64,000 nt of DNA from Candidatus Kaiserbacteria bacterium RIFCSPHIGHO2_01_FULL_46_22 (GCA_001779595.1 MFKO01000002.1:22279-86278), one strand, 5' to 3'. Positions 129-56,904 are shown, counted from the stretch's first letter. Notes: generated by a model not told the origin, from the letters alone. Numbers and translations are program-made.

Positions 129-728
129 TTGTTATACTCTCTGCACATGACTAAATATATCCTTCATGGTGGGTACACTAGTCCGGACAACGAATTGAAC
201 CGTACTTTCTACGAAGAGATTGCTCGTGATGTTCCAGATGGAGGCACAATATTACTTTGTTACTTTGCTTCTAAAGATGAAGACAACTCCCGAAGGTTTC
301 AAGAGGATAGTCAAAAACTAAGGGAGCAATCTCATGGTAAGACTTTCAAGTTCATACTTGCAAGCGAGGAAGACTTTTCTGAACAACTGAAGCAATCAGA
401 CGCTCTTCATATACGCGGAGGTAGTACCCCTAAACTTCTTGGGATATTGAATAAATATCCTGATCTCAAGGAAAATCTGAAAAATAAAACAATATCAGGA
501 TCTTCCGCCGGAGCATATGCAATTGGCGCTTATAGCGCTTTTCATGACGATGAATCTGGTGGGAAAATACGCAAAGGAGTCGGGCTTCTCCCAATAAGAG
601 TGGTTTGTCATTACGAAAGTAAAGACTTGCCCCCAAACCCAGAAGCATTAACCTCTTTAATGGAAATGGAGCAAGCACTTGATCTGGTGCTACTCAAAGA
701 CTTTGAATGGAAGGTGTTTAGAGTTTAA
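129..728 (+). CDS. Peptidase family S51 (dipeptidase E / cyanophycinase-like) protein
   Basis: IRGGSTPKLL (GGNT-like motif) and ISGSSAGAYA (GxSAG nucleophile motif); 199 aa. Confidence 0.6.
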   Translation: MLYSLHMTKYILHGGYTSPDNELNRTFYEEIARDVPDGGTILLCYFASKDEDNSRRFQEDSQKLREQSHGKTFKFILASEEDFSEQLKQSDALHIRGGSTPKLLGILNKYPDLKENLKNKTISGSSAGAYAIGAYSAFHDDESGGKIRKGVGLLPIRVVCHYESKDLPPNPEALTSLMEMEQALDLVLLKDFEWKVFRV

Positions 729-5004: not shown

Positions 5005-5928
5005 ATGAAATATCTAGTTATTGCAGTTGTAGTGATCTTAGTTCTCGGTGTGGGAGGGTTCTTTGTCTACAAGAACATCGCCAATCGTGCAGACATGGAG
5101 AATGATCGAGCATTTGAGGAAGCGAAGCCTGATACAGCAGCAGAACAGGAAAAAACAGTGGACGATACCAAAACGGTTATCGGTAAGTCAGCAGACGGAC
5201 ACGAGATAACTGCGTATCACTATGGTAAGGGAGACACGAATCTTCTATTTATCGGTGGTATTCACGGCGGTTACTCATGGAATACCGCTCTCGTTGCATA
5301 CGAACTGATGGAATATCTTGAAAAGACTCCTGATGCTATTCCAGAGAATATGCGCGTGACAGTTATTCCAGTTATGAACCCTGATGGACTTAATACCGTC
5401 GTTGGAACCACAAGCCGCTTCTCTATGGCGGATGTTCCAGAAGAATCGGCAGACACTATACCGGGACGTTTTAACTCGAATGAAGTAGATCTCAACCGAA
5501 ACTTTGATTGTGATTGGCAGGCGGAGAGTAAATGGCAGAACCGCACAGTGAGCGGTGGCAGTGAAGCTTTCTCTGAGCCGGAGAGCAAGGCAGTGCGTGA
5601 CTTTATCGCAACAAGCAGTCCGGATGCTGTAGTGGTTTGGTACAGTTCTGCCGGCGGTGTATTTGCATCAAATTGTCACGATGGTGTATTGGCCGAGACG
5701 ACTGAGTTGACGAGCTTGTATGCGGAAGCTTCTGGATACCGCGCGTTTAAAGAATTTAATTTCTACGAGATCACTGGCGATATGGTGAACTGGATGGCAA
5801 AGCAGGGAATCCCAGCCATCAGCGTGCTCCTCACTACTCACCGCGATGTCGAATGGAACAAGAACCGAGCTGGTATTGAAGCGCTATTCAAACACTATTC
5901 CGATGAATCTGCCGACCTTCCTGAATAA
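5005..5928 (+). CDS. M14-family zinc carboxypeptidase-like protein, membrane-anchored (paralogue 1)
   Basis: N-terminal TM; GGIHGGYSWN, PVMNPDG, EVDLNRNFDCDWQ motifs. Confidence 0.6.
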   Translation: MKYLVIAVVVILVLGVGGFFVYKNIANRADMENDRAFEEAKPDTAAEQEKTVDDTKTVIGKSADGHEITAYHYGKGDTNLLFIGGIHGGYSWNTALVAYELMEYLEKTPDAIPENMRVTVIPVMNPDGLNTVVGTTSRFSMADVPEESADTIPGRFNSNEVDLNRNFDCDWQAESKWQNRTVSGGSEAFSEPESKAVRDFIATSSPDAVVVWYSSAGGVFASNCHDGVLAETTELTSLYAEASGYRAFKEFNFYEITGDMVNWMAKQGIPAISVLLTTHRDVEWNKNRAGIEALFKHYSDESADLPE

Positions 5929-6793
5929 AAAAGTTGTCACAGCAGGATTAATACTGCTAGTGATTTGTGTTGGTGTTTTCGTATTCTTCTTTAAGCAGAC
6001 GGAGGAATATATTCCTCAAGTTGTGAATGAACCAGAGGAAGCAATTACAGTTCGACACGAGGTTATAGGCACATCCGTTGAGGGTCGTACTATCGACGCT
6101 TACACTTATGGCGATGGTGAAACACATCTTCTGTTTGTGGGTGGAATCCACGGTGGGTACGAATGGAACAGTGTCGTGCTGGCATACGAAATGATGGATC
6201 ATTTTGAAGAAAATCCAGAGCTTATTCCGCAAAATGTGTCGGTCACTATTGTGCCCTCTGCCAATCCAGACGGTCTCTTTGCTCGGGTTGGTATAGAAGG
6301 CCGCATTACTTCACTCGACGTGCCAGCTGAAACAATAAGTGGCGAGGGACGGTTCAACGCCAATGATGTTGATCTTAATCGCAACTTCGACTGCAAGTGG
6401 CAGCCTGAAAGTATGTGGCGTGGAAAAGTTGTGAGTGCTGGAACAGCTGCATTCTCAGAACCGGAGGCGCAGGCTATACGTGATATCGTTTCTGCAACCA
6501 ACCCTGTGGTTGTGGTGTTCTGGCACAGTCAGGCAAATGCTGTTTACGCATCGGAATGTGAAGAGGGAATTTTGTCTGGCACGCGAGCGGCGATGAATGT
6601 GTATGCAACTGCCGCGGAATATCCGGCAGTGGATGTGTTTGACAGCTATCCGGTCACTGGCGATGCAGAAGGCTGGCTGGCGTCGATCGGCATACCGGCG
6701 ATTACAGTAGAATTGGCGACTCATGAAAGTACTGAATGGAGCCGGAATTTGGCCGGCGTGATTGCGCTAATAGCGTCTTATAAAGGAAACTAA
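5903..6793 (+). CDS. M14-family zinc carboxypeptidase-like protein, membrane-anchored (paralogue 2)
   Basis: Same motif set (GGIHGGYEWN, PSANPDG, DVDLNRNFDCKWQ); ATG at 5903 (MNLPTF...) chosen; overlaps the stop of paralogue 1 by ~26 nt in another frame. Confidence 0.55.
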   Translation: MNLPTFLNKKVVTAGLILLVICVGVFVFFFKQTEEYIPQVVNEPEEAITVRHEVIGTSVEGRTIDAYTYGDGETHLLFVGGIHGGYEWNSVVLAYEMMDHFEENPELIPQNVSVTIVPSANPDGLFARVGIEGRITSLDVPAETISGEGRFNANDVDLNRNFDCKWQPESMWRGKVVSAGTAAFSEPEAQAIRDIVSATNPVVVVFWHSQANAVYASECEEGILSGTRAAMNVYATAAEYPAVDVFDSYPVTGDAEGWLASIGIPAITVELATHESTEWSRNLAGVIALIASYKGN

Positions 6794-16739: not shown

Positions 16740-17369
16740 ATGCTAAAGAAACATTTTTGGAAGATCGCCGCTCTTATTGCTGTTTTGGCTTTAGGCGGAG
16801 CAATTTATTACTCAAAACAAGCCTCAGAGAAAGCCAATGAAGGGGTAACTATTTCTTCTCACATCAAAGGCAATCCGGAAGCAAGAGTTGAACTTGTTGA
16901 GTATAGTGACTTTCAGTGTCCAGCCTGCGCTCAGTTCTATCCTTATGTAAAAGACTTGCTGGACGAACACGGATCATCAATACGTTTTGAATACCGACAC
17001 TTCCCGCTGGTGACAGTTCACCCCGTAGCTATCCCGGCAGCACGTGCCGCCGAAGCCGCCAGTCAGCAAGGCAAGTTTTGGGAAATGCATGACAAGTTGT
17101 TTGAAAACCAAAGTGCTTGGAGTAAGGCAAGTAATGCAAACGCACTTTTTGTTCAGTATGCCGAAGAACTTGATCTTGACGTCTCGTTATTCAAGAGTCA
17201 TATGAACGCTTCACTAATCGACGAAGCTATCAGCAAGAGCTTTGAGGACGCACGCACTCGCGGTTTCTCCGGTACTCCTACCTTCCTCCTAAACGGAGAA
17301 CTGATGCAGTTCACAACCTTCGACGAATTCCGAACAGCTATCGAGGAAGCAATTGCAGAGGCTTCATAG
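16740..17369 (+). CDS. DsbA-like thiol:disulfide oxidoreductase, membrane-anchored
   Basis: N-terminal TM; CPAC CxxC motif in a thioredoxin-like context. Confidence 0.6.
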   Translation: MLKKHFWKIAALIAVLALGGAIYYSKQASEKANEGVTISSHIKGNPEARVELVEYSDFQCPACAQFYPYVKDLLDEHGSSIRFEYRHFPLVTVHPVAIPAARAAEAASQQGKFWEMHDKLFENQSAWSKASNANALFVQYAEELDLDVSLFKSHMNASLIDEAISKSFEDARTRGFSGTPTFLLNGELMQFTTFDEFRTAIEEAIAEAS

Positions 17370-17459
17370 AGGTTTTTAGACTTTCAAAGAAAGCGTGTCC
17401 TAATGCGGGTGGAGTACAAGACCGTGTTAGGATTTTGCACACTTTAGCTATTGAACTAT

Positions 17460-18743
17460 ATGCCCAAGGCCAAAAAGAACATCATAGCCTATGTCTCCAG
17501 AGTGCCGTTGGAAGCGGTCGTCGATATTCGTGCTTGGGAAAAAGAAACCGGCGAGAAGTATCGGATAATGCTGATAGAGAATTCAGTCCGCAAATTAACC
17601 AAAAGGCAAAGCGGGGCTTCGCTATCAGGCGTTGATATCGTTTTATCTTTAGACTTTGACAGCGAGGATTCTTTGCAGGAAGGTATTGCTCCTTATCAAG
17701 ATCAGCTTTGTGCCATTTCGAGTCGAGTCGAGTCGTATTTGGCTGATTTCATAAAGATAATCCCCTTCGTACCGTATCTACATACACCAACACCTGAGTC
17801 TCTAAAGTGGGCTAGTGACAAACGCTTAATGCGTCGTCATTTCAAGATTGCCGATTCATCCCTTTCACCAAAATATACTTTGGTTAAAAGCGCGGAAGAT
17901 GCGGAGTTGGATAGGGTTATTAATAAGGTTGGCTTGCCACTTATTGTAAAACCCACCAACTTAGCTCAGAGCTTGCTGATCACTGTATGTCACCATCGTG
18001 ATGAACTGCGAAAAGCTGTAAAGGACATACTTAAAAATATCGACAAGGTGTACGAAGAAAACGGTCGTACCGAAAAACCACGTGTTATTGCCGAGCATTA
18101 TATGGAGGGCCTGCAGTATTCTATTGATGCGTACGTATCGGCTCGCGGAAAGGTTATTTGTTGCCCTCTGGTAAGACAAAAGACCGGTCACGATATAGGC
18201 CGTGATGATTTCTTTGGTTATTTGCAGTCAACTCCAACTGCTCTATCTTCTGCGACTGTCAACAAAGCGGAAGATGTTGTCCGAAGAGGAGTTTATGCTC
18301 TTGGTCTTCGCAATACCACCGTGCACGTAGAGTTGATGAGGATAGATAACGATTGGAAAATTATAGAAATTGGCGCACGTATAGGTGGTTTTCGGCCGCA
18401 GCTGCACCGACTCTCTTGTGGTATCAATCACGGCATGAACGACATCTTAGTTAGAATGGGTAAACCACCAGTGGTACCTCGTCGTTGCAAGCGTTTCTCT
18501 GCAGCAATCAAATACTATGCGAAAGAGGAGGGTGAAATAGTCAGTATTCTTGGTTTGAAGAAAATTGAAAAGCTGAACTCCTTTCACCAGATAGAAATGC
18601 GTAAAAAGCGTGGAGATAAAAGTGTGTTTGCCAAAAACGGCGGCGGCGCCATATTTGTCCTATATTTGGTTAATGACAGCCGCGCGGAACTTCTAGCTGA
18701 TATTCGTCGCGTTGAAGCAACAGTGAAAGTGGAAGTAGATTAG
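17460..18743 (+). CDS. ATP-grasp domain protein with N-terminal extension
   Basis: ...VGLPLIVKPTNLAQSLLITV..., ...VHVELMRIDNDWKIIEIGARIGG... ATP-grasp fold signatures; alternative TTG start at 17451. Confidence 0.5.
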   Translation: MPKAKKNIIAYVSRVPLEAVVDIRAWEKETGEKYRIMLIENSVRKLTKRQSGASLSGVDIVLSLDFDSEDSLQEGIAPYQDQLCAISSRVESYLADFIKIIPFVPYLHTPTPESLKWASDKRLMRRHFKIADSSLSPKYTLVKSAEDAELDRVINKVGLPLIVKPTNLAQSLLITVCHHRDELRKAVKDILKNIDKVYEENGRTEKPRVIAEHYMEGLQYSIDAYVSARGKVICCPLVRQKTGHDIGRDDFFGYLQSTPTALSSATVNKAEDVVRRGVYALGLRNTTVHVELMRIDNDWKIIEIGARIGGFRPQLHRLSCGINHGMNDILVRMGKPPVVPRRCKRFSAAIKYYAKEEGEIVSILGLKKIEKLNSFHQIEMRKKRGDKSVFAKNGGGAIFVLYLVNDSRAELLADIRRVEATVKVEVD

Positions 18744-18764
18744 TTTTACTCGTATCCATTATTT

Positions 18765-19640
18765 ATGAAAATCGCACTAGTTGCTGCTCGTCCGATATTC
18801 GAAATCAAAGAACTTCACAAAGAGTTGTCTTCGCGTGGACACGAAGTGGTCATGTGGCCTTTGGATGATCTGACACCGGAACAATTTGTAAATGGAAGCC
18901 TAGTTGAGGCCTGGAGCGGATTTGATTTGATCTATTACCGGTCGGGGATGTCAGACGCAGGAATCGAGATGTTGCCACGTCTTCTTGGAGACAGGCCAGA
19001 TCGACTCGTAAACCAGGTGTTCATAAAGTACCCTTTATCTCGACATAAAATTTACCAAGCGTTTGCAGCGATAGAGGGAGGTCTGCCTGTACCACCAATG
19101 TTTATAGGGCGTAATGTTCCATTCGCCAAGCTGACAGCCGAACTAGGATTACCTTTCATTGTTAAGGGTGCGCAAGGGATACAAGGTAACAGAGTATTCT
19201 TGGCTTCTGATGAACAAAACTATACGACTTTACTTGAAACTGTCGAAGGTGATGTTTTGATGCAAAAGTTCATCCCTAATAATGGTGACTATCGAGTCTT
19301 TACAATCGGAGGAGAAGTCTATCAGATATTTAAACGGGTAGCAGAGAACGGAAGTTTCAAAAACAACATGTCACTTGGTGCTAAAGGTGAACCAGTGGTT
19401 GACCTTGAACTGCGAGAGCGACTTGGCAACATAGCGACCAAGATTGTACGTGCTCTAAATATCGAAATCGGCGGCGTCGATATCATCGAGTCCGCAGTTG
19501 ATGGAAACTTGTTCTTCTTGGAGGTTAATGTGAACCCAGGTTGGGCTGGGCTTGATTCTACACTAGGTACAAATACCGCTTCAGCTATTGCTGACTATTT
19601 TGAATCTCGCATCAAATCATCTAGTACTGCTACGCTGTAG
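18765..19640 (+). CDS. RimK-like ATP-grasp ligase (alpha-L-glutamate ligase family)
   Basis: ...LPFIVKGAQGIQGNRVFL..., GDYRVFTIGGEV, FFLEVNVNPGW. Confidence 0.6.
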   Translation: MKIALVAARPIFEIKELHKELSSRGHEVVMWPLDDLTPEQFVNGSLVEAWSGFDLIYYRSGMSDAGIEMLPRLLGDRPDRLVNQVFIKYPLSRHKIYQAFAAIEGGLPVPPMFIGRNVPFAKLTAELGLPFIVKGAQGIQGNRVFLASDEQNYTTLLETVEGDVLMQKFIPNNGDYRVFTIGGEVYQIFKRVAENGSFKNNMSLGAKGEPVVDLELRERLGNIATKIVRALNIEIGGVDIIESAVDGNLFFLEVNVNPGWAGLDSTLGTNTASAIADYFESRIKSSSTATL

Positions 19641-20500
19641 GTTTTCTCTAGATCAAAGCCAACAAAAGGATTAAATATATCCATCTGTGGTGCCTTGTTA
19701 ACTTCAAACACTAAAGGTCCACGCGGAGAACGGACCAGATCTACACCAGCTAGACGCAACTGTGCTATCTCCGCTGCTTTGATGCATATATCGCGCTCTT
19801 GCTCGGAGATCTCTGCCTTTTCACCCTGACCGCCTTGTGAGAGGTTGTTATAGAAGCCATCTGCGCTACTTCTCCTTACAGCGGCTATTACCTTTCCATC
19901 CAATACGAAGACGCGTAAGTCGTAATCGTTTTCTATGTACTCCTGAATAAGTGTAAGGTTGTCGTCGGTTCCTAGTTTTTCTTCGAGCTCAGCCAGAGTA
20001 TTAACTTTCCAAACCTGCTTACCTTTCGAGCCGGTTTTTTTGATCACAGAAGGGAAGGTCAGATGAGTGGAGAGAAACTGCTGGTTTACTTTGTATGAGT
20101 GATTTGTCAATAAGATTGACTTCGGTACTTGTATGCCTGAAAGGGGTAGAAGGACACCGATTGTCATTTTGTCGGCAGTCTTGTCCGAAAGCAGATTTGC
20201 GTTGTCGATATAAGCAGGAGCTTGTTTGCTGAGGATTGTAGCAATCAGATAGGTTCGATAAGTGTCCTGATTGGTTCGTCTAAATACAAAACCGGTGTCT
20301 TTAGTGACTAAGGGAAGGTTGTTGTAGATGACGGAGACAGCCTTATTGTCCTCATTATGACCAATAGTTATAAGACAGTCTTTAGTGTCGATGTTCTCTG
20401 TAGTCAGACTCCGGGCAGCGGCTGCTTCGTGAAAAGTAGAAATGAAATGTTCCAGGTCACCGGCGTTCAATACAACTATTTGTTTCAACATAATGGTCAA
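19595..20500 (-). CDS. RimK-like ATP-grasp ligase (second, convergent copy)
   Basis: DYDLRVFVLDGKVIAAVRR, GVDLVRSPRGPLVFEVNKAPQM; 3' end overlaps the previous gene by 46 nt. Confidence 0.6.
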   Translation of the reverse strand: MTIMLKQIVVLNAGDLEHFISTFHEAAAARSLTTENIDTKDCLITIGHNEDNKAVSVIYNNLPLVTKDTGFVFRRTNQDTYRTYLIATILSKQAPAYIDNANLLSDKTADKMTIGVLLPLSGIQVPKSILLTNHSYKVNQQFLSTHLTFPSVIKKTGSKGKQVWKVNTLAELEEKLGTDDNLTLIQEYIENDYDLRVFVLDGKVIAAVRRSSADGFYNNLSQGGQGEKAEISEQERDICIKAAEIAQLRLAGVDLVRSPRGPLVFEVNKAPQMDIFNPFVGFDLEKTYSVAVLDDLMRDSK

Positions 20501-20549
20501 ATCTTATGTTTATTATGAAGGATGGTCAATCTTTTGTTATAATAGCCAT

Positions 20550-21101
20550 ATGATACGCACGCGTGATTTTTTGCTGTTTGGAGCAGTCGTGCTCTTTCTT
20601 TTTACTGGCCTAAGCGTGACTGTGTTGATGGATGCATGGCAGGAAGGAGGTCAATTGGCTACTGTGGTTGAATTTGAACGACCTAAGGAAGTTGCGGGCG
20701 CTGAGGCAGAAGATCAAGTTAAAGACTACGAAGGCAATGCTGAACGTTTACGGGGCAAAATTGCACAAGGGGAAGGTATCGTAGCAGGCGGTCCGGTGTT
20801 TACATCGGTCGATGACTTGATGGCTGCGTCCAGCACGACAATTACCGATCAGACTGCGCCGACTTCAATTTTGATCGGACAAACAATGGATGGTTCACCT
20901 TTATCGAGCGATGAGCTTTGGCGCTATGTGGGTTTTACACAAACCGATCAAATTGGTGTTGCGATAAATGGTTACCCGATCTTCGGTTCTCATTCGAACG
21001 TGGCAGTACTTGATGCTTGCGGGGGAGTTGATGAGGGATCAGGTTATCGTTACTACATACAGCCGGGCAAAGAGGTTGCTGAGGGGTGCTTTGTGAAGTA
21101 A
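20550..21101 (+). CDS. Hypothetical membrane-anchored protein
   Basis: N-terminal TM (FLLFGAVVLFLFTGLSVTVLM); ATG at 20550 preferred. Confidence 0.35.
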   Translation: MIRTRDFLLFGAVVLFLFTGLSVTVLMDAWQEGGQLATVVEFERPKEVAGAEAEDQVKDYEGNAERLRGKIAQGEGIVAGGPVFTSVDDLMAASSTTITDQTAPTSILIGQTMDGSPLSSDELWRYVGFTQTDQIGVAINGYPIFGSHSNVAVLDACGGVDEGSGYRYYIQPGKEVAEGCFVK

Positions 21102-21167: not shown

Positions 21168-21668
21168 TTGGATTGGATCAATGTACGTCCACTGAGCAAG
21201 CCTGAAAAATTGGCTGACGTCGCAATGGCTCCGTTGATGCGAGTCATTTCTGGAGCACCCAGTGAAGTTCCCCAAAGTACGCATCGTTGGAACAATGCAA
21301 AGCTAGATGCTGAGATTTGTTCCAGTTTTCGTGATGATTGTATGGTCGAGATCGCTGGTGACCCGGCCGCCAAGAGAATGTGGTACGGCTCACTCCCTCT
21401 TTTTCATTTACCCATTCTGGGTGGATGGAAAAGATATGTTGTACTTCAGTCAGAAAGACCACACATCAAATGGTATGTGGGCTGGATAACACAGGAAGTT
21501 TGCGGCTACTCGAGAATACCGAGTCTAGGAGCAACGCGATCATTGATTGGACCGGGGAATGTGAAATTCTTTGGTCTGAACGCCGCTGGTCTCCAGATAC
21601 CAATCCGCATGGTCGGTGAGGGAAAGATCGGCGACGGTGGGGAGTGGCGGAATTTGCCGCTACGCTGA
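21168..21668 (+). CDS. Orphan 166-aa ORF (TTG start) of uncertain coding status
   Basis: AGGAGG then a 5-nt spacer then TTG; Trp/Cys-rich sequence without recognisable domain; region carries overlapping 60-85-aa ORFs on both strands. Confidence 0.3.
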   Translation: MDWINVRPLSKPEKLADVAMAPLMRVISGAPSEVPQSTHRWNNAKLDAEICSSFRDDCMVEIAGDPAAKRMWYGSLPLFHLPILGGWKRYVVLQSERPHIKWYVGWITQEVCGYSRIPSLGATRSLIGPGNVKFFGLNAAGLQIPIRMVGEGKIGDGGEWRNLPLR

Positions 21669-45694: not shown

Positions 45695-48600
45695 ATGAAT
45701 TCCCACACCGCGCACTTCTTGAACCGAGTTCTTTCATTTGTGACCATAATCGCTCTCGTTTTGGTCATGGTGCCGGTTTGGCCACAGATAGCACATGCAG
45801 ATAATCTTTTTTCCACGAGCTTCGAAGGAACTCCGCCACTTGATGAATGGACAAGTGACGATCCTCATTGGGGAGTAAACGCGAGTGATTCAAGAACTGG
45901 CTCAAAGCAGGCGCAAGCAGTGGGAAGTAATTCTGGCGCCGGGACTCTTCTCAAAGAAGTCAGTACGGAGGGCTACGAAAACATCTCTCTAAGTTTTTGG
46001 TACAAACAGCTAGGCATGGACGTTGGCGATAGTATTACAGTGGAATGGTTTGATGGATCAAGTTGGAACCCTGTAACCGCAATCAATGGGCTTGAACTTG
46101 AGGCGGACGACGATGCTGTGTGGGTTGAGTGGTCAGGACTTCTGGGTTCCGAAGCTGACGACAACACCGCCTTTGCCGTAAGGTTTGTGTCGAATATGAA
46201 TTCCGCTGGGAACGATAAGTTTTTCTTAGAGGACGTTAATCTAGAGGGTGAAGAGGAAGAAGTTGTGGGGCCTGTTCCAGATTGTAGTCTCACAGACAGC
46301 GTGTCGATGACTACTTTTGACACTTTTGCTACAGGTACTGTAAATGCGCAAAACTCATGGAGCTCAACTGGCTCTTATGACCAGGAGGTTGTTCCAAATA
46401 CTTATGGCTTTGAAGAGTTCGGTTGTAAATCACTTCGCATCTCAAATGCTGTAACAAGCGGTGCTTTCGGGAATCAGACGTTTGCCGCTCCAACTGCGGG
46501 TACAGCAGGCGAATCAAGTGTTGCGGCCAATAATCATTTTGAGGCAGAGTTTGATATTGCTTCAACAATGCCTGGTTTGCAGTCAGGTCTGACACTTTCA
46601 GTGTCTCCTGATGACGGAAATGGTTCACGTATGAGCTATTTGAGCTTCACTGACACCGCAGATGGTATCGATGTGGTCTTTTATGACGTAACAAACACCG
46701 GCCCTCTTCCGAGCGTAACTTCATGGAATGATACAGAAGTTGCAACACTTGATCGCGATGAGTCCCATACAATCAAATTTGTAATGGACTTCGTAGATGG
46801 TCCAGGTAACGATGTTGTGAAGATTTATATAGATGACGTACTTGCACATACAGGCACCAGCTGGGAGGACTATTATCGCTATGACGCAGAACAAAACGGC
46901 AACGGAAACGCATTGTTCGGAGTAGATACTCTTATCTTCCGTGCTGGAGGGACAGCTGTTCCTGCAAACGATAGCAACGGTTTCCTGTTCGACAATATGT
47001 CTATGTCAGTTTCAGACATTAGTTCTGGCAGCAGTACTTCTGAAACCATAGTGGTTTCCAGCAACACATCTGCAGGTGAGAATCTACCAGGATGGATGTT
47101 CAACCGTGATCCAGGCACAGATACTCCATTTGTGTTCAACACTGATCAATCATCTATCGGTGCTGGTAGTCTCTACGTGTTGCCGATTGGCTCATCTAGC
47201 CCAAGCGATAAATTTATCGCGGAGAACTTCATCAATGCACCAATTGCCGATGTCGATTCTATTTCTTACGACTTTATGATCGGCAGTGGCGGCGAGAACA
47301 CTGATGAGGAACAGTTCTATATGAATGTATACGCCAACTTCGGCGTATCTGACGACAATAAGTTTTACGACTGTCGATACAACATCGTGCCAACAACTGG
47401 TTCTACTGGCGGATTTACGACTGTTACATTTGACCCAAATCAGAGCTATCCAGTTACCACCCGAACCGGAGGCTCTGCGTCACCATTTACCTGTCCTTCT
47501 GTACCAGCTCAGATGGATAACTTAAGTCCAGGCTCCAATATCCGTGTCTTCTCCCTAAATCTTGGTGATACCACCGTGAGCGATGAAGGTATAGACGGTT
47601 ACTTTGATCGAGTGGTTACAGTTATTGACGATGGAGACAATACTCATACCACCACTTATGATTTCGATCCTGAATCTGAAGCTCCAACTGCCGCTGTAAC
47701 AATGTGTAAGTACAATCCATCTGAACAGACAATGGATGGTTGGACTTTGATGTTGGAGGGTGAACATATAGAAGACGTTGTTGTGCCAGCTGGCGCTATT
47801 GGAGGTATAGACACCACCGCTTCTCTTGAGGCTGGTAAGTCCTACTTCGCGGTAGTAAATGGCGTATGGCTAAACGATCGTACTCCTGACAATCACGTGG
47901 ATGCAGAGTACTCAACTGAAGACAGTTGGCTTACTCAAATGGACGGATTCACTGGTTACGGTGAAAACATTCTTGATCTACAAGTAGGAGAAGAGTTTGT
48001 AGAATGGGGTCCATACAACAGCACTCATACTTACTCAGCATCATTCACTCCAAGTGTTGATGGCTCTGTGAACTTCCGTATCTTTGACGGTACAGGCGAC
48101 ACACCGAATGCTTCTTGGTACGGAGATAACTCTGGTTCACTCAGCGTATCTATTTATGAAGGTTTTGCCGGAGTAACTGACGATGGTTGTGTTACTTTCG
48201 ATGCTGTACCTTACGGTTCCTATGAAGTTGACGAAGTGATGCAGGAAGGTTGGGTCAACACATTTGGTCTTGTAGAGGTTGAAGTAGATGAACCGACTGA
48301 AGAGTTCAATGTAGTAAACGATGAGATTGGCGAACCAGAAATGTGTTACGTGACAGTTGTTTCAGATGAGAGCAACTATGTAGAAGAAACTGAAGACGAT
48401 GCGGAATTGACTTGGGCGCATCCAGCCTGGACTGCTGTGATCGACTTGGCTGAATGGATCTGGGGTACTGAAAATGTAGAAGATCCAACTGTTACTGAAG
48501 TACAGACTTTTGTTAAAACATTTGAATGGAGCGGCGGTGTTGCATCTTCATCACTTGTAATCGCTACTGATAACTTCTATGAAGTTTACCTAAACGGCAA

Positions 48601-50524
48601 CTTCGTAGCTTCGAGTACAGAAGCCAGCCTCTTCACTGATGCAAACAAGGACACGATTGATGTTTCTGGCTTTATTGAGATGGGAGAAAACACTTTGGAG
48701 ATCAAGGTTACCAACCTCGGTGTTCCAGGCAGCTCACCTACCAGCAATCCAGCTGGTTTGAAATACAACCTCACTGTTGTATCAGACGAAGAGGGTGAAG
48801 ATTGTATGTATGCTCCTGACGAACCTAGTCTTGAGATCACTAAGCCAGAAATAGATGACATGGTACTGGCTGGTATTTACACCTTTGAAGCTGAATACGT
48901 TGATGCAGATGAAAACCCTGATCCTGTACAGTGGGCGATCCGTGCTGGTACTTGTAACGCAGGTACAAACACTGTTGCAGGAAACGTTGATGGATTCTTT
49001 AGCTCATCAACACCACACACATGGAATGGAGCAAGCTTCTCTAGCACCATTGATATGAGTGACTGGGATGATGGCGAATACTGTTTCGTCGTTAATCCAA
49101 CTGAAGATGGCGGCACAAACTTCCGTGAGACTCGTCTATTTACTCTTGAAAACGCTGCACCTACACAATGTCTAGTAGTGAGCGACACAAGTACTGTAGT
49201 GGTAGAGAACAACAATTACGCTGTTGCTACTTGGGATGAGCATCATAACTGGACTCATGACATTCTTGGAGCTACTTGGATCTGGGATAACCTCTACGTT
49301 GTAGATCCTGAGGCTACAACCACGTTAACCTTCAAAGAATCATTTACTGCAACTGATATTGAAGAAGCGTCGTTTGAAATCGCAACCGACAATGCATACA
49401 AGGTATTCATTAACGGTGTATTGCGATATGAGCAGTCAAACTCCAACAACTTCCAAACTCCTGATGAGCATGAGGACGTCCTCGACTTCCTAACTGAAGG
49501 AGAAAACGAACTACTTGTAGAAGTGACCAACTTCGCAGTGGAAGACAGTATTCCTAAGACCAACCCAGCTGGAGCGTTGTTCAAACTAGATATGGAAGTT
49601 GGTGGTGTTTGTGAAATCACTACTGACCTAGAGGATGAATCAGAACCTCAGCCTGAAATCGGAGAGAATGAAGTCTTTGGCTTCGTCTGGGTGGACGATA
49701 ATGAAGATACCTCTAAGAATAACGACGAAGACTATCGCTCAGGTATCGGTATTTCGATTAATAATGGTTCAACCACAGTTTCTACCAGCACTGATGCAGG
49801 TGGTCGTTACTTCTTTAACATCGATGATGGTAGCTGGACTATCAGTGCCACAACTGGAGGAGAGTGGAGTCTAACTTACCCGTCTGATAACGGTGGTGAA
49901 CACGACGTCAGTGTAAGCACTAGCTCTGGTCCTTATGACTTCGGTATTGTCGAAAACGGTTCTACCGATGGAGGTGGTGACGGTGATGGGGATGGCAATG
50001 GCGATGGGGACGGTGATGGCGACGAAGGTGGCGGAACTGGTGGTGGCGACACAACTATCGATTCACCTAGTGGCGATGCCGGCGGTAACCCACAAATAGC
50101 TGGCGTTACGACAAGTGGCGGCCTCTTCTCACGTGGAGATTCTGGTCCGGACGAAAAGGTATTGGGTGAAAGTACTTCGACCGAAGATGGAACAGATGAC
50201 TCTATTGAAGAATCGACATCCACAGCAAAAGCTTTGACTGCAATGGTAGATTGGATTGATGAGTGCTGGTACTGGTGGCTCTTGGTCTTCGCTTGGATCG
50301 TATCAAGCGGCGTTGTTTACTACTGGAAAGGTTGGAGCAATGAACCAATTTCTCTAATGAGCGTTGAACTATTGTTCAGTATTCTTGGATTGCTTGGACT
50401 GATGTCCTACCTAGTGTTTGGCTTACATTGTGCATTGTGGCCTTCTCTAATCACTATGTTGGGCTCAGCGATACTGTACTATGTCAATAACCGTGAGATC
50501 CCTTCGTCCAAGACCGTGCTATGA
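45695..50524 (+). CDS. Giant (1609 aa) cell-surface protein with N-terminal signal/TM, internal duplicated beta-rich domains, DG/NG repeat and C-terminal TM anchor
   Basis: Signal-like N-terminus; two ~120-aa paralogous segments; (DG)n/(NG)n low-complexity; C-terminal hydrophobic helices. Confidence 0.6.
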   Translation: MNSHTAHFLNRVLSFVTIIALVLVMVPVWPQIAHADNLFSTSFEGTPPLDEWTSDDPHWGVNASDSRTGSKQAQAVGSNSGAGTLLKEVSTEGYENISLSFWYKQLGMDVGDSITVEWFDGSSWNPVTAINGLELEADDDAVWVEWSGLLGSEADDNTAFAVRFVSNMNSAGNDKFFLEDVNLEGEEEEVVGPVPDCSLTDSVSMTTFDTFATGTVNAQNSWSSTGSYDQEVVPNTYGFEEFGCKSLRISNAVTSGAFGNQTFAAPTAGTAGESSVAANNHFEAEFDIASTMPGLQSGLTLSVSPDDGNGSRMSYLSFTDTADGIDVVFYDVTNTGPLPSVTSWNDTEVATLDRDESHTIKFVMDFVDGPGNDVVKIYIDDVLAHTGTSWEDYYRYDAEQNGNGNALFGVDTLIFRAGGTAVPANDSNGFLFDNMSMSVSDISSGSSTSETIVVSSNTSAGENLPGWMFNRDPGTDTPFVFNTDQSSIGAGSLYVLPIGSSSPSDKFIAENFINAPIADVDSISYDFMIGSGGENTDEEQFYMNVYANFGVSDDNKFYDCRYNIVPTTGSTGGFTTVTFDPNQSYPVTTRTGGSASPFTCPSVPAQMDNLSPGSNIRVFSLNLGDTTVSDEGIDGYFDRVVTVIDDGDNTHTTTYDFDPESEAPTAAVTMCKYNPSEQTMDGWTLMLEGEHIEDVVVPAGAIGGIDTTASLEAGKSYFAVVNGVWLNDRTPDNHVDAEYSTEDSWLTQMDGFTGYGENILDLQVGEEFVEWGPYNSTHTYSASFTPSVDGSVNFRIFDGTGDTPNASWYGDNSGSLSVSIYEGFAGVTDDGCVTFDAVPYGSYEVDEVMQEGWVNTFGLVEVEVDEPTEEFNVVNDEIGEPEMCYVTVVSDESNYVEETEDDAELTWAHPAWTAVIDLAEWIWGTENVEDPTVTEVQTFVKTFEWSGGVASSSLVIATDNFYEVYLNGNFVASSTEASLFTDANKDTIDVSGFIEMGENTLEIKVTNLGVPGSSPTSNPAGLKYNLTVVSDEEGEDCMYAPDEPSLEITKPEIDDMVLAGIYTFEAEYVDADENPDPVQWAIRAGTCNAGTNTVAGNVDGFFSSSTPHTWNGASFSSTIDMSDWDDGEYCFVVNPTEDGGTNFRETRLFTLENAAPTQCLVVSDTSTVVVENNNYAVATWDEHHNWTHDILGATWIWDNLYVVDPEATTTLTFKESFTATDIEEASFEIATDNAYKVFINGVLRYEQSNSNNFQTPDEHEDVLDFLTEGENELLVEVTNFAVEDSIPKTNPAGALFKLDMEVGGVCEITTDLEDESEPQPEIGENEVFGFVWVDDNEDTSKNNDEDYRSGIGISINNGSTTVSTSTDAGGRYFFNIDDGSWTISATTGGEWSLTYPSDNGGEHDVSVSTSSGPYDFGIVENGSTDGGGDGDGDGNGDGDGDGDEGGGTGGGDTTIDSPSGDAGGNPQIAGVTTSGGLFSRGDSGPDEKVLGESTSTEDGTDDSIEESTSTAKALTAMVDWIDECWYWWLLVFAWIVSSGVVYYWKGWSNEPISLMSVELLFSILGLLGLMSYLVFGLHCALWPSLITMLGSAILYYVNNREIPSSKTVL
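48419..48790 (+). repeat. Intragenic domain repeat, copy 1 (…HPAWTAVIDLAEWIWG…TNPAGLKYNLTV…)
   Basis: Shares WxxxxxxxxxWIW, …FExxxxxxxSSLxIATDNxYxVxxNGxxV…, …KDTxDxSxFxxxGENxLxxxVTNxxV…TNPAG… with copy 2; approximate coordinates. Confidence 0.55.
49240..49615 (+). repeat. Intragenic domain repeat, copy 2 (…HHNWTHDILGATWIWD…TNPAGALFKLDM…)
   Basis: See copy 1; approximate coordinates. Confidence 0.55.
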
Positions 50525-55827: not shown

Positions 55828-56904
55828 ATGAATATTTCATTGTTCAAGACCATTTTGCTGGGAGTCTCTATAGTTTTACTTTTTTCGGCCACTGCTGTAG
55901 TTGGCTATTCTTTTTACCAACTTCATTTTAAAACTCTGGTTGGTGAATCACTTTCTATTAAACAAGGATTTTTGGAAGTTGTTTATAATTCTGCCGAAGA
56001 AGATGACGAAAAAATTATCCTTACAGGCGACATAATGCTGGCGCGAGATGTAGAGAGGCGACAGTCTCTGCTGTCGCCAGGGCACTCGCTGAGCGAACTA
56101 GAAGACTTGTTTAAGTCCAGCATTGTTGTCGGCAACTTTGAGGCCAGCATTCCAGTTCTTCATGAGCCTACACCTAGTATGGTTATGAAATTTTCTGTGA
56201 CGCCACAGAATCTCGATATTCTCGTTCAGGGAGGACTCACACACCTATCGCTCGCTAACAATCATTCGCTTGATCATGGTTTGCTTGGTTACGAAAATAC
56301 TTTAACTGAACTGCATGAACGTGGTTTTGTTGCAGGAGGTTACCCGGTCGGTTTGTCTAGCTCCTCAGTTTCCTATGTGGAAGCAAATGATAAAAAATTC
56401 GCGTTGGTTTTTATAAACGCCACTTTCAGTTACCCTGATACGGCAATTTGGCATCCGTTTATAAAACAGGCTGAATCAAGTAGCGATGCTGTAATTGTTT
56501 ATATTCATTGGGGAGACGAATATGAACTAATACACAACAATGCGCAGGAAAGGCTGGCCCATGAGCTTATTGATGCCGGAGTTGATTTAATTGTTGGGCA
56601 TCATCCCCATGTGGTGCAGGATATTGAGCTGTATAAGGGTAGATTAGTTTTTTATTCTCTTGGCAATTTGGTTTTTGATCAGTATTGGAACAATGATGTC
56701 TCTGAAGGTCTAATATTAGAGCTGGAGAAGGTTGATGCTATGTGGCGGGCTGAACTCCATCCTGTGGAAAGTCGTACGGTTAAGACACAGCCACAGGAAA
56801 TGACGGCGGAAGAAAGCCAAGCTTTCTTCCGCCGCCTCGCAGAGCGCAGTGACGAGGCACTTTATGAGCAAATCCTCGACGGTTCTCTCTCGTTGCAATT
56901 TTAG
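55828..56904 (+). CDS. CapA/PGA_cap family metallophosphatase-like protein, membrane-anchored
   Basis: ...ILTGDIMLARDV..., LSLANNHSLDHG, IVYIHWGDEY, LIVGHHPHVVQ, SLGNLVFDQ. Confidence 0.7.
   Translation: MNISLFKTILLGVSIVLLFSATAVVGYSFYQLHFKTLVGESLSIKQGFLEVVYNSAEEDDEKIILTGDIMLARDVERRQSLLSPGHSLSELEDLFKSSIVVGNFEASIPVLHEPTPSMVMKFSVTPQNLDILVQGGLTHLSLANNHSLDHGLLGYENTLTELHERGFVAGGYPVGLSSSSVSYVEANDKKFALVFINATFSYPDTAIWHPFIKQAESSSDAVIVYIHWGDEYELIHNNAQERLAHELIDAGVDLIVGHHPHVVQDIELYKGRLVFYSLGNLVFDQYWNNDVSEGLILELEKVDAMWRAELHPVESRTVKTQPQEMTAEESQAFFRRLAERSDEALYEQILDGSLSLQF

Follow-up and report, generated by a model that had tools for sequence, protein, structure and literature searches.

The ligase RimK adds glutamate (Glu) to the C-terminus of the ribosomal protein RpsF (S6) and makes free poly-alpha-Glu, and RimB trims RimK-made chains, stimulates RimK and occurs in RimB-RimK hybrids (PMC11957791, PMC10092738). 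The RloABC system of Pseudomonas aeruginosa consists of a retropepsin (RloA), an inactive transglutaminase with seven transmembrane segments (7TM; RloB) and an ATP-grasp ligase (RloC) (PMC11957051). More generally, linked peptide ligases typically catalyse successive ligations (PMC4431377). Here, we analysed three adjoining ATP-grasp ligase genes at positions 17460-20500 of a 64,000-nucleotide (nt) stretch of DNA (GCA_001779595.1, MFKO01000002.1:22279-86278), which as a whole we call the window, from Candidatus Kaiserbacteria bacterium RIFCSPHIGHO2_01_FULL_46_22. This host belongs to the Patescibacteria, also known as the candidate phyla radiation (CPR). Two of the genes encode RimK-type ligases and one an L-amino-acid ligase (LAL)-type enzyme, and we tentatively propose that the trio may be a Rim-like, ribosome-independent, ATP-dependent module for making or lengthening an alpha-linked peptide. 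Neither the chemistry nor any of the individual families is new in itself, but their combination in Patescibacteria is; our literature search found no paper on this cluster or on the pattern of an LAL core with a variable slot described below.

ORF calling of the window recovered all three genes as uninterrupted open reading frames (ORFs) with the expected Pfam domains, in agreement with a preliminary description of this locus. ORF1 (17460..18743, plus strand) encodes 427 amino acids (aa) from an ATG and is the LAL-type ATP-grasp that forms the module's conserved core. It equals database protein P0001 (hypothetical protein A2837_00950, Candidatus Kaiserbacteria bacterium) across its full length, and its translation is unlikely to begin at the TTG found upstream (17451). 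ORF2 (18765..19640, plus strand, 291 aa) starts 21 nt past the end of ORF1 in the same direction, is identical to database protein P0145 (A2837_00955) and encodes a RimK-type ATP-grasp ligase of the clade that we call type-2. ORF3 (19595..20491, minus strand), a RimK-type ATP-grasp ligase of the type-3 clade, had been drawn from a TTG at 20500. The ORF itself is real, but this TTG gives the maximal ORF only, and the matching database protein P0121 (298 aa) begins at the ATG that moves the end of the gene to 20491. ORF2 and ORF3 converge tail-to-tail, and their 3' ends share 46 nt (19595..19640) that code on both strands; this overlap, also part of the preliminary description, held up when the sequence was inspected.

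We compared the locus with 80 species-representative loci from GTDB genomes, using our own ORF calling and classification by BLAST and phmmer; accessory genes were counted within 3.5 kb of ORF1, and recurring families were listed within 3 kb. Among related loci, a backbone of DsbA, ORF1, ORF4 and, further along, GH1 was conserved, with a DsbA gene upstream of ORF1 in 61 of 89 loci. ORF1 was the best-conserved gene of the neighbourhood, at 80-85% identity in near relatives; in most of the same relatives (not L016), identities were 63-68% for DsbA, 59-68% for GH1, 58-59% for ORF2 and 54-59% for ORF3. A variable slot on either side of ORF1 held zero to three accessory genes, and at least one extra amidoligase, peptidase or member of a family that we term Fam256 (~250 aa) was found near ORF1 in 59 of the 80 species. 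One or two RimK-like genes occupied the slot in 41 species, a 317-aa ATP-grasp protein in 10, a MATCAP/QEGLA-type metallopeptidase in six, a Mur-ligase-like protein in three (L013, L026 and L054), a second LAL paralogue in two, a RimB-like retropepsin with a DTG motif in one and Fam256 in 14. The slot was empty in 21 species, eight of them on truncated contigs. All slot contents that could be annotated were enzymes that form or cleave peptide bonds. What is conserved at the core of this locus is ORF1 rather than the RimK pair, and the RimK-like genes are interchangeable accessories.

The trio as such also occurred in L005, L011, L012 and L016. Even at 80-85% ORF1 identity the slot varied: L007 has a type-3 gene alone, L013 a Mur-like ligase, and L010, L014 and L015 a single RimK-like gene of another kind that shares only 28-30% identity with ORF2. 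Gene order and strand varied as well. In L008 and L009, where ORF3 is 36% identical, the ORF1 orthologue lay on the opposite side of a still-convergent, overlapping RimK pair, and in L028 ORF1 was flanked by one RimK-like gene per side. All three genes were co-directional in L019, where ORF1 overlaps the first RimK-like gene by an ATGA stop/start and at most a few nt separate the two RimK-like genes; 4-nt ORF overlaps were also seen in L010 and L018. Because so many species have a RimK-like gene no more than 3.5 kb from ORF1 and this adjacency survives rearrangement, the clustering is not due to chance.

The remaining slot families add further candidate ligases. The 317-aa ATP-grasp proteins (L054:7891-8847, L044:7792-8745 and others) had the cyanophycin synthetase (CphA) G domain (53-62 bits) and the GshAB C-terminal module as their best NCBIfam matches, and the Mur-like proteins (L013:8674-9933, L026:7611-8864, L054:6545-7840) matched the CphA M domain best, at 145-155 bits. 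Judged by these profile matches, separate G-like and M-like genes beside ORF1 could represent a split cyanophycin-synthetase-like system in Patescibacteria. Fam256 (L076:93-887 on the minus strand, L015:3736-4506 on the plus strand, L056, L060, L062-L064, L074, L075 and L086-L088) adjoins ORF1, mostly upstream and divergent, and carries an invariant HGxDxNxYG...G....K motif; the window has no member. Fam256 had no match in Pfam (E≤10), NCBIfam or a PDB-sequence profile search, and we suspect, as an unverified impression, that it is a FemAB/GNAT-like amidoligase.

ORF1 scored 75 bits with the Pfam model ATP-grasp_4 (cut-off 27) and 23.1 bits with LAL_C2 (PF18603), below the cut-off of 29.4, in a match covering profile positions 4-77 of 78 and residues 356-429. 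Its top PDB sequence matches were the L-amino-acid ligases 3vot and BacD, and the NCBIfam and PDB sequence matches were collinear with ORF1 from the N-terminal domain onward. An AlphaFold2 model (predicted local distance difference test score, pLDDT, 87.9) gave BL00235 (3vot) as the best Foldseek match, with E 4e-28 and a template-modelling (TM) score of 0.74-0.79, followed by BacD/YwfE and RizA, all over the full length. LAL fold matches together spanned E 4e-28 to 2e-22 and TM 0.67-0.79, and biotin carboxylases and PurK/PurT ranked behind them. On its predicted structure, ORF1 is a full-length LAL-type (L-amino-acid-ligase-like) enzyme with the three-domain fold, and its activity is predicted likewise. 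The ~130 N-terminal residues that had been taken for an extension are the ordinary LAL N-terminal domain, since the fold matches to 3vot, BacD and RizA include it. ORF1 stayed below all NCBIfam equivalog cut-offs, for LALs (BacD, 39 vs. 850 bits; DdaF, 26 vs. 840) as well as for housekeeping enzymes (Ddl, 27.3 vs. 245.7; PurT, 24.7 vs. 502; PurD, 20.4 vs. 288; PurK, 17.7 vs. 327), and the cluster ligases likewise did not reach the NCBIfam cut-off for carbamoyl-phosphate synthase (CPSase). All three proteins were far below the Ddl, PurK, PurD and PurT cut-offs, so none falls into the housekeeping clades that had been considered as an alternative home for them. A HMMER search of 1.84 billion representatives returned just 180 members of the ORF1 family at E≤1e-30, rising to 494 at E≤1e-10, so the subfamily is narrow.

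For ORF2 and ORF3, the Pfam RimK model (PF08443, cut-off 21) gave 102.4 and 117.3 bits, respectively, and GSH-S_ATP (threshold 23) gave 42 and 38 bits. Matches to the RimK-family model TIGR00768 were full-length, at 118.1 and 138.2 bits, both under the cut-off of 143.4, and the RimK-S6 equivalog NF007764 (cut-off 331) was not reached, at 62.6 and 85.4 bits. Also unreached were MptN (83.6 and 102.6 vs. 350), CofF (39 and 73.7 vs. 300), LysX (71.1 and 87.6 vs. 275.6), CphA (26.7 and 34.8 vs. 850), the glutathione synthase equivalogs (38-48 vs. 272-299) and the graspetide maturase models (17.8-31.7 vs. 350-425). Neither ORF2 nor ORF3 had an NCBIfam match to the RloC-type model TIGR02291, and the Pfam model for tubulin tyrosine ligase (TTL) matched none of ORF1-3. 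The cofactors of MptN and CofF belong to methanogen and F420 pathways, which would be unexpected in Patescibacteria. Amino-acid tailing, as suggested by the preliminary description, is the direction in which the comparative evidence points, but the specific addition of alpha-linked Glu to S6 or a cofactor is not supported by the RimK-S6, MptN, CofF and LysX scores.

The catalytic motifs of RimK are retained in both proteins. The GVD...EVN.NPG motif of ORF2 aligns with RimK of E. coli and Pseudomonas, and residues K95, K134, D239, E253 and N255 are invariant in its family. Residues 19-281 of ORF3 align to E. coli RimK, with AGVD...EVN..P retained and with K108, K151, D251, E263 and N265 invariant in the ORF3 family, and the nearest solved folds to its AlphaFold2 model (pLDDT 91.9) were RimK, then ArgX/LysX, then graspetide ligases. 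By Pfam domain, motif and, for ORF3, predicted fold, both are RimK-type ligases, as had been proposed, with intact predicted catalytic residues. Their relationship is distant: ORF2 and ORF3 share 30% identity over 158 aa, and a neighbour-joining tree of 54 RimK-like proteins places them in two old clades, with a third clade also present. RimK-like pairs in this tree combine one type-2 with one type-3 protein. The sequences thus indicate that the two are ancient paralogues rather than recent ones. GC content showed no sign of foreign DNA in the RimK pair.

Related loci also connect ORF1 with peptidases. In L001 and L017, a RimB-like gene (DTG) and a MATCAP-like gene (EG[LV]A) come after the ORF1 orthologue (59% identity), and there is no RimK-like gene; the peptidase link is therefore to ORF1, the LAL, itself. 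MATCAP/QEGLA-family metallopeptidases stand beside an ATP-grasp gene in L001 (9819-11219, minus strand), L068, L070, L084, L087 and L088. A QEGLA-like EG[LV]A sequence is retained in these MATCAP-like (PF08014) genes, and the HExxxH motif can be seen in L084. By eye, the N-termini of the MATCAP- and RimB-like peptidases have no obvious signal peptide, and they appear to be cytoplasmic. In more remote relatives, LAL domains of the ORF1 family are fused to a RimB-like protease, which is C-terminal in P0244 and P0256 and N-terminal in P0284. One such fusion (L091) overlaps by 4 nt a RimK gene that scores 315.3 bits with the S6-Glu ligase equivalog (cut-off 331) and 248 with the RimK family (143), and another (L092) shares its operon with two ATP-grasps, one of them TIGR02291-type, and an RloB-like 7TM_transglut protein. 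Three features link LAL-type ligases, as a new enzyme class, to ribosome-independent peptide tailing of the RimK/RimB kind: the LAL core is invariant, its accessory ligases and peptidases are combinatorial, and LAL-RimB fusions are coupled to RimK.

ATP-grasp enzymes activate a carboxylate as an acyl-phosphate, which is then attacked by the amino group of the incoming amino acid. If the trio acts as a peptide-extending module, ORF1 would make the first bond or primer, by joining two amino acids into a dipeptide or by placing a first residue on the carboxylate of an acceptor, and ORF2 and ORF3 would then add alpha-linked residues at the growing C-terminus. The added residues would most likely be acidic ones, such as Glu or aspartate (Asp), and each paralogue may have its own acceptor or residue preference. 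Such extension would yield a short chain, an oligo- or poly-amino acid that is free or forms the C-terminal tail of a protein. In sister lineages, the same core ligase is paired with CphA-like G and M proteins or another LAL as candidate extenders, or with RimB-like retropepsins and MATCAP-like carboxypeptidases, which would trim such chains.

Several observations weigh against this proposal. Both RimK-type proteins fall below TIGR00768 and far below the RimK-S6 model, which makes Glu specificity an extrapolation, and the Arg of the RimK FRSN motif is replaced by an invariant Tyr in the ORF3 family and by Lys in the window's ORF2. Characterised LALs couple free amino acids, not protein termini. 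No acceptor was apparent: a six-frame phmmer search of the window and 90 related loci, with S6 of E. coli and B. subtilis and LysW of T. thermophilus as queries, found no match, there was no small candidate-acceptor ORF in the window or these 90 loci, and none of the window ORFs ends in an acidic C-terminal tail. Nor does the window have a RimB-like or MATCAP-like peptidase beside the trio, and no PF05618 (RimB) gene was called within 10 kb on either side of its ORF1. The LAL-RimB-like fusions are found only in remote ORF1 relatives (31-35% identity), and other remote relatives point elsewhere: in P0277 and P0297 the ORF1-family LAL is fused to a GT4 glycosyltransferase (768 aa), and one LAL-GT4 fusion (L093:7001-9307) stands alone beside a sigma-70 gene. 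Finally, about one-quarter of relatives have ORF1 alone, so ORF1 can work without RimK-like partners and could have a housekeeping role of its own.

The GT4 fusions (P0277, P0297) would suit a role in the envelope, where the enzymes would add amino acids to a peptidoglycan precursor (as a branch or cross-bridge) or to a uronic-acid surface glycopolymer, with ORF1 doing the conserved step and the accessory ligases giving lineage-specific chemistry. Accessory turnover at 80-85% ORF1 identity is the pattern expected of a surface trait, and the products of linked ligases include peptidoglycan, teichuronopeptides and O-antigen (PMC4431377). The conserved flanks also encode exported proteins (DsbA, the membrane-anchored ORF4 and transmembrane-anchored M14 carboxypeptidases), although this conservation may merely reflect conserved gene order in the clade. 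The Mur-ligase-like proteins in the slots of L013, L026 and L054 seem to favour the same role, but they fit the CphA M domain better than MurC-F or MurT (12-73 bits). Ddl models gave 16-27 bits against cut-offs above 240, and neither the window nor the loci examined contained a mur, mraY or fem gene; no Ddl or Mur ligase was found in the window, and phmmer with the L054 Mur-like protein gave no match among its ORFs. The RimB- and MATCAP-type peptidases, for their part, appear cytoplasmic and are of types that act on protein or peptide tails. Overall, we regard envelope decoration as unlikely, if still worth serious thought. We are similarly doubtful that the cluster makes a discrete small metabolite, namely a defined di-, tri- or tetrapeptide assembled from scavenged amino acids in the manner of GshA/GshB, RizA/RizB or BacD, which could be a compatible solute, a glutathione-like thiol or a bioactive peptide. 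The nearest relatives of ORF1 are dipeptide- and oligopeptide-forming ligases, no gene for a protein or carrier substrate was found in the window or related loci, and, more speculatively, the DsbA gene upstream of ORF1 in most loci would fit a link to thiol redox. The likeness to glutathione enzymes cuts both ways, because ORF2 and ORF3 match the glutathione-synthetase ATP-grasp domain above the Pfam threshold and the 317-aa slot proteins match the GshAB C-terminal module as well as CphA, yet scores with the glutathione synthase equivalogs are far under their cut-offs. Moreover, no GshA-like, transporter or tailoring gene was among the families recurring with the cluster, and its association with endo- and carboxypeptidases and the RimB-like fusion fit chains or tails better.

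It is also conceivable, but distinctly improbable, that the genes have no joint function, with ORF1 a housekeeping gene and the RimK-like genes unrelated enzymes, such as S6 glutamylases, in a recombination-prone slot. ORF1 is partnerless in ~21 of 80 loci and far better conserved than its neighbours, ORF3 is convergent and must have its own promoter, and the slot sits between strongly syntenic backbone genes (DsbA ... ORF4, GH1). However, the annotatable slot genes, which all make or cleave peptide bonds, are not a random sample, and their adjacency to ORF1 outlasts changes of order and strand (L008, L019, L028). The ATGA overlap in L019 and the 4-nt overlaps in L010 and L018 likewise speak for a connection, as do independent fusions and operons that unite LAL, RimB-like and RimK proteins on unrelated contigs. 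A microviridin-type (graspetide) ribosomally synthesized and post-translationally modified peptide (RiPP) or a LysW-type amino-group-carrier pathway seems very improbable. Graspetide ligases and LysX/ArgX are among the structural neighbours of ORF3, behind RimK, and give weak NCBIfam matches, but scores are low (maturases, 18-32 vs. 350-425 bits; LysX, 71-88 vs. 276), no precursor or LysW-like ORF was found in the gaps, the window or related loci, and there are no lysine or arginine biosynthesis genes nearby. The preliminary description had also judged a microviridin-type product unlikely and had noted no precursor-like small ORF nearby; we agree on both counts, as the intergenic gaps contain no free-standing one.

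A bolder version of the peptide-extending module, which we think quite unlikely, would have the LAL act as a "writer" that nucleates a fast-exchanging cassette of extenders (RimK-types, split CphA-like G/M proteins, a second LAL) and erasers (RimB-like, MATCAP-like), together writing lineage-specific non-ribosomal tails on protein C-termini. If true, such a cassette would give prokaryotes a counterpart to the tubulin-tail code, or else serve as an amino-acid storage or tagging device fitting organisms unable to make their own amino acids. Patescibacteria have minimal genomes with almost no biosynthesis. The retention of three ATP-consuming ligases in a minimal genome, one of them among the best-conserved genes of the region, implies that their product is important. 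Were this product a protein tail, post-translational tail-writing would be extended to an uncultured radiation; were it an envelope decoration, it would bear on surface variation by these episymbionts.

Because 19595..19640 codes on both strands, there is no room for a terminator between ORF2 and ORF3. The same 46-nt overlap length was found in three other species (L011, L012, L016), and the overlap region had a mean column identity of 76% across five aligned species. Elsewhere, the overlap was shorter, at 25 (L005), 6 (L008) or 4 nt. This variation in length, together with the co-directional pairs of some lineages, indicates compact packing at the level of the clade rather than a defining property; an antisense effect of the overlap would be speculation. 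The ORF3 promoter presumably lies in the divergent intergenic region between ORF3 and ORF4 (20492..20549) or just beyond it. Weak sigma-70-like matches occur here on the minus strand (20540-20512 and 20529-20501), though their total count in the region was not above that in shuffled sequences. A promoter for an ORF1-ORF2 unit may lie in the 90-nt gap between DsbA and ORF1 (17370..17459), an interval that in many relatives is the insertion site of accessory genes. In our scan, promoter-like sites were at the background level of shuffles, and nine terminator-like sites, against a shuffle mean of 3.8, were nearly all inside coding sequences. No ORF of at least 20 aa was present in the gaps across 17300-20700; every small ORF overlapped a large gene.

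Other genes of the window and related loci deserve mention. ORF4 (20550..21101) encodes a membrane-anchored protein of 183 aa that has no Pfam match and is weakly YHYH-like (E 1e-5); its gene comes after the ORF1 orthologue in ~59 loci, and ~10 others have a full YHYH protein in its place. An unannotated family of ~147-166 aa, located at 21168..21668 in the window, is conserved between ORF4 and GH1 in 18 loci. Tandem M14 zinc carboxypeptidases with N-terminal transmembrane segments are encoded at 5005..5928 and 5846..6793, and L004, L025, L036, L048 and L057 have the same pair upstream of their ORF1 orthologue, at a distance of 2-10 kb. A very large ORF of 1609 aa spans 45695..50524 on the plus strand. 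In L001 (7333-7974, minus strand) and L018, where ORF1 is 59-60% identical, a gene for elongation factor P (EF-P) divergently adjoins the ligase; these are few loci, and the arrangement may be a coincidence. EF-P is known to carry unusual post-translational modifications.

The preliminary description had also pointed to a peptidase S51 (129..728) and a CapA-family protein (55828..56904) as possible signs of poly-amino-acid metabolism. Both are encoded in the window, at 34 and 175 bits, respectively, but the connection is not borne out: the two genes are 17 and 36 kb from the cluster, the match to S51 is weak, and CapA stands without CapB or CapC. In related loci, the families that recurred within 3 kb of ORF1 included neither. 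As a candidate member of a PgsBCA operon, CapA was rejected, its neighbours being an AI-2E transporter, a 149-aa protein without a Pfam match, an FKBP isomerase and a tRNA-guanine transglycosylase (TGT).

Among the described systems closest to the cluster is RimABK of Pseudomonas and E. coli. ORF2 and ORF3 have the RimK domain and catalytic motif, RimK is the nearest solved structure to ORF3, and the RimB-like retropepsins that adjoin or are fused with ligases in relatives parallel the RimB-RimK hybrids (PMC11957791). By contrast, the cluster has two divergent RimK-types instead of one, and has at its core an LAL-type ligase, an enzyme that the described rim operons (rimA, rimB, rimK; PMC10092738) lack. 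The window also has no RimB, RimA or rpsF, its host is a Patescibacterium, and ORF2 and ORF3 lie far under the S6-Glu ligase equivalog, with the FRSN Arg replaced. With RloABC, the comparison is through the L092 fusion operon, which shares an RloB-like 7TM_transglut protein and a TIGR02291-type ATP-grasp, and the common theme is a cytoplasmic ATP-grasp with a retropepsin; the window itself differs in having no RloB-like or RloA-like gene.

ORF1 shares the three-domain fold, ATP-grasp_4 and a weak LAL_C2 match with LALs (BL00235, BacD/YwfE, RizA/RizB, DdaF), but its sequence identity to them is just 15-18% and its equivalog scores are tiny. Known LALs sit in antibiotic clusters, whereas ORF1 belongs to a reduced genome, as a single gene of high conservation amid RimK-type ligases and peptidases. 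CphA1 joins an ATP-grasp G domain to a Mur-like M domain, and the slots of L013, L026 and L054 hold separate G- or M-like proteins; the chemistry, C-terminal extension of a peptide chain, would be the same, but here the genes are split, score far under the cut-off of 850 and are absent from this window. Finally, the pairing of an ATP-grasp with a MATCAP-family peptidase in six related species resembles, by analogy, the writer and eraser of the eukaryotic tubulin tyrosine ligase/MATCAP cycle, although MATCAP-like genes are absent from the window and the TTL model is unmatched by ORF1-3.

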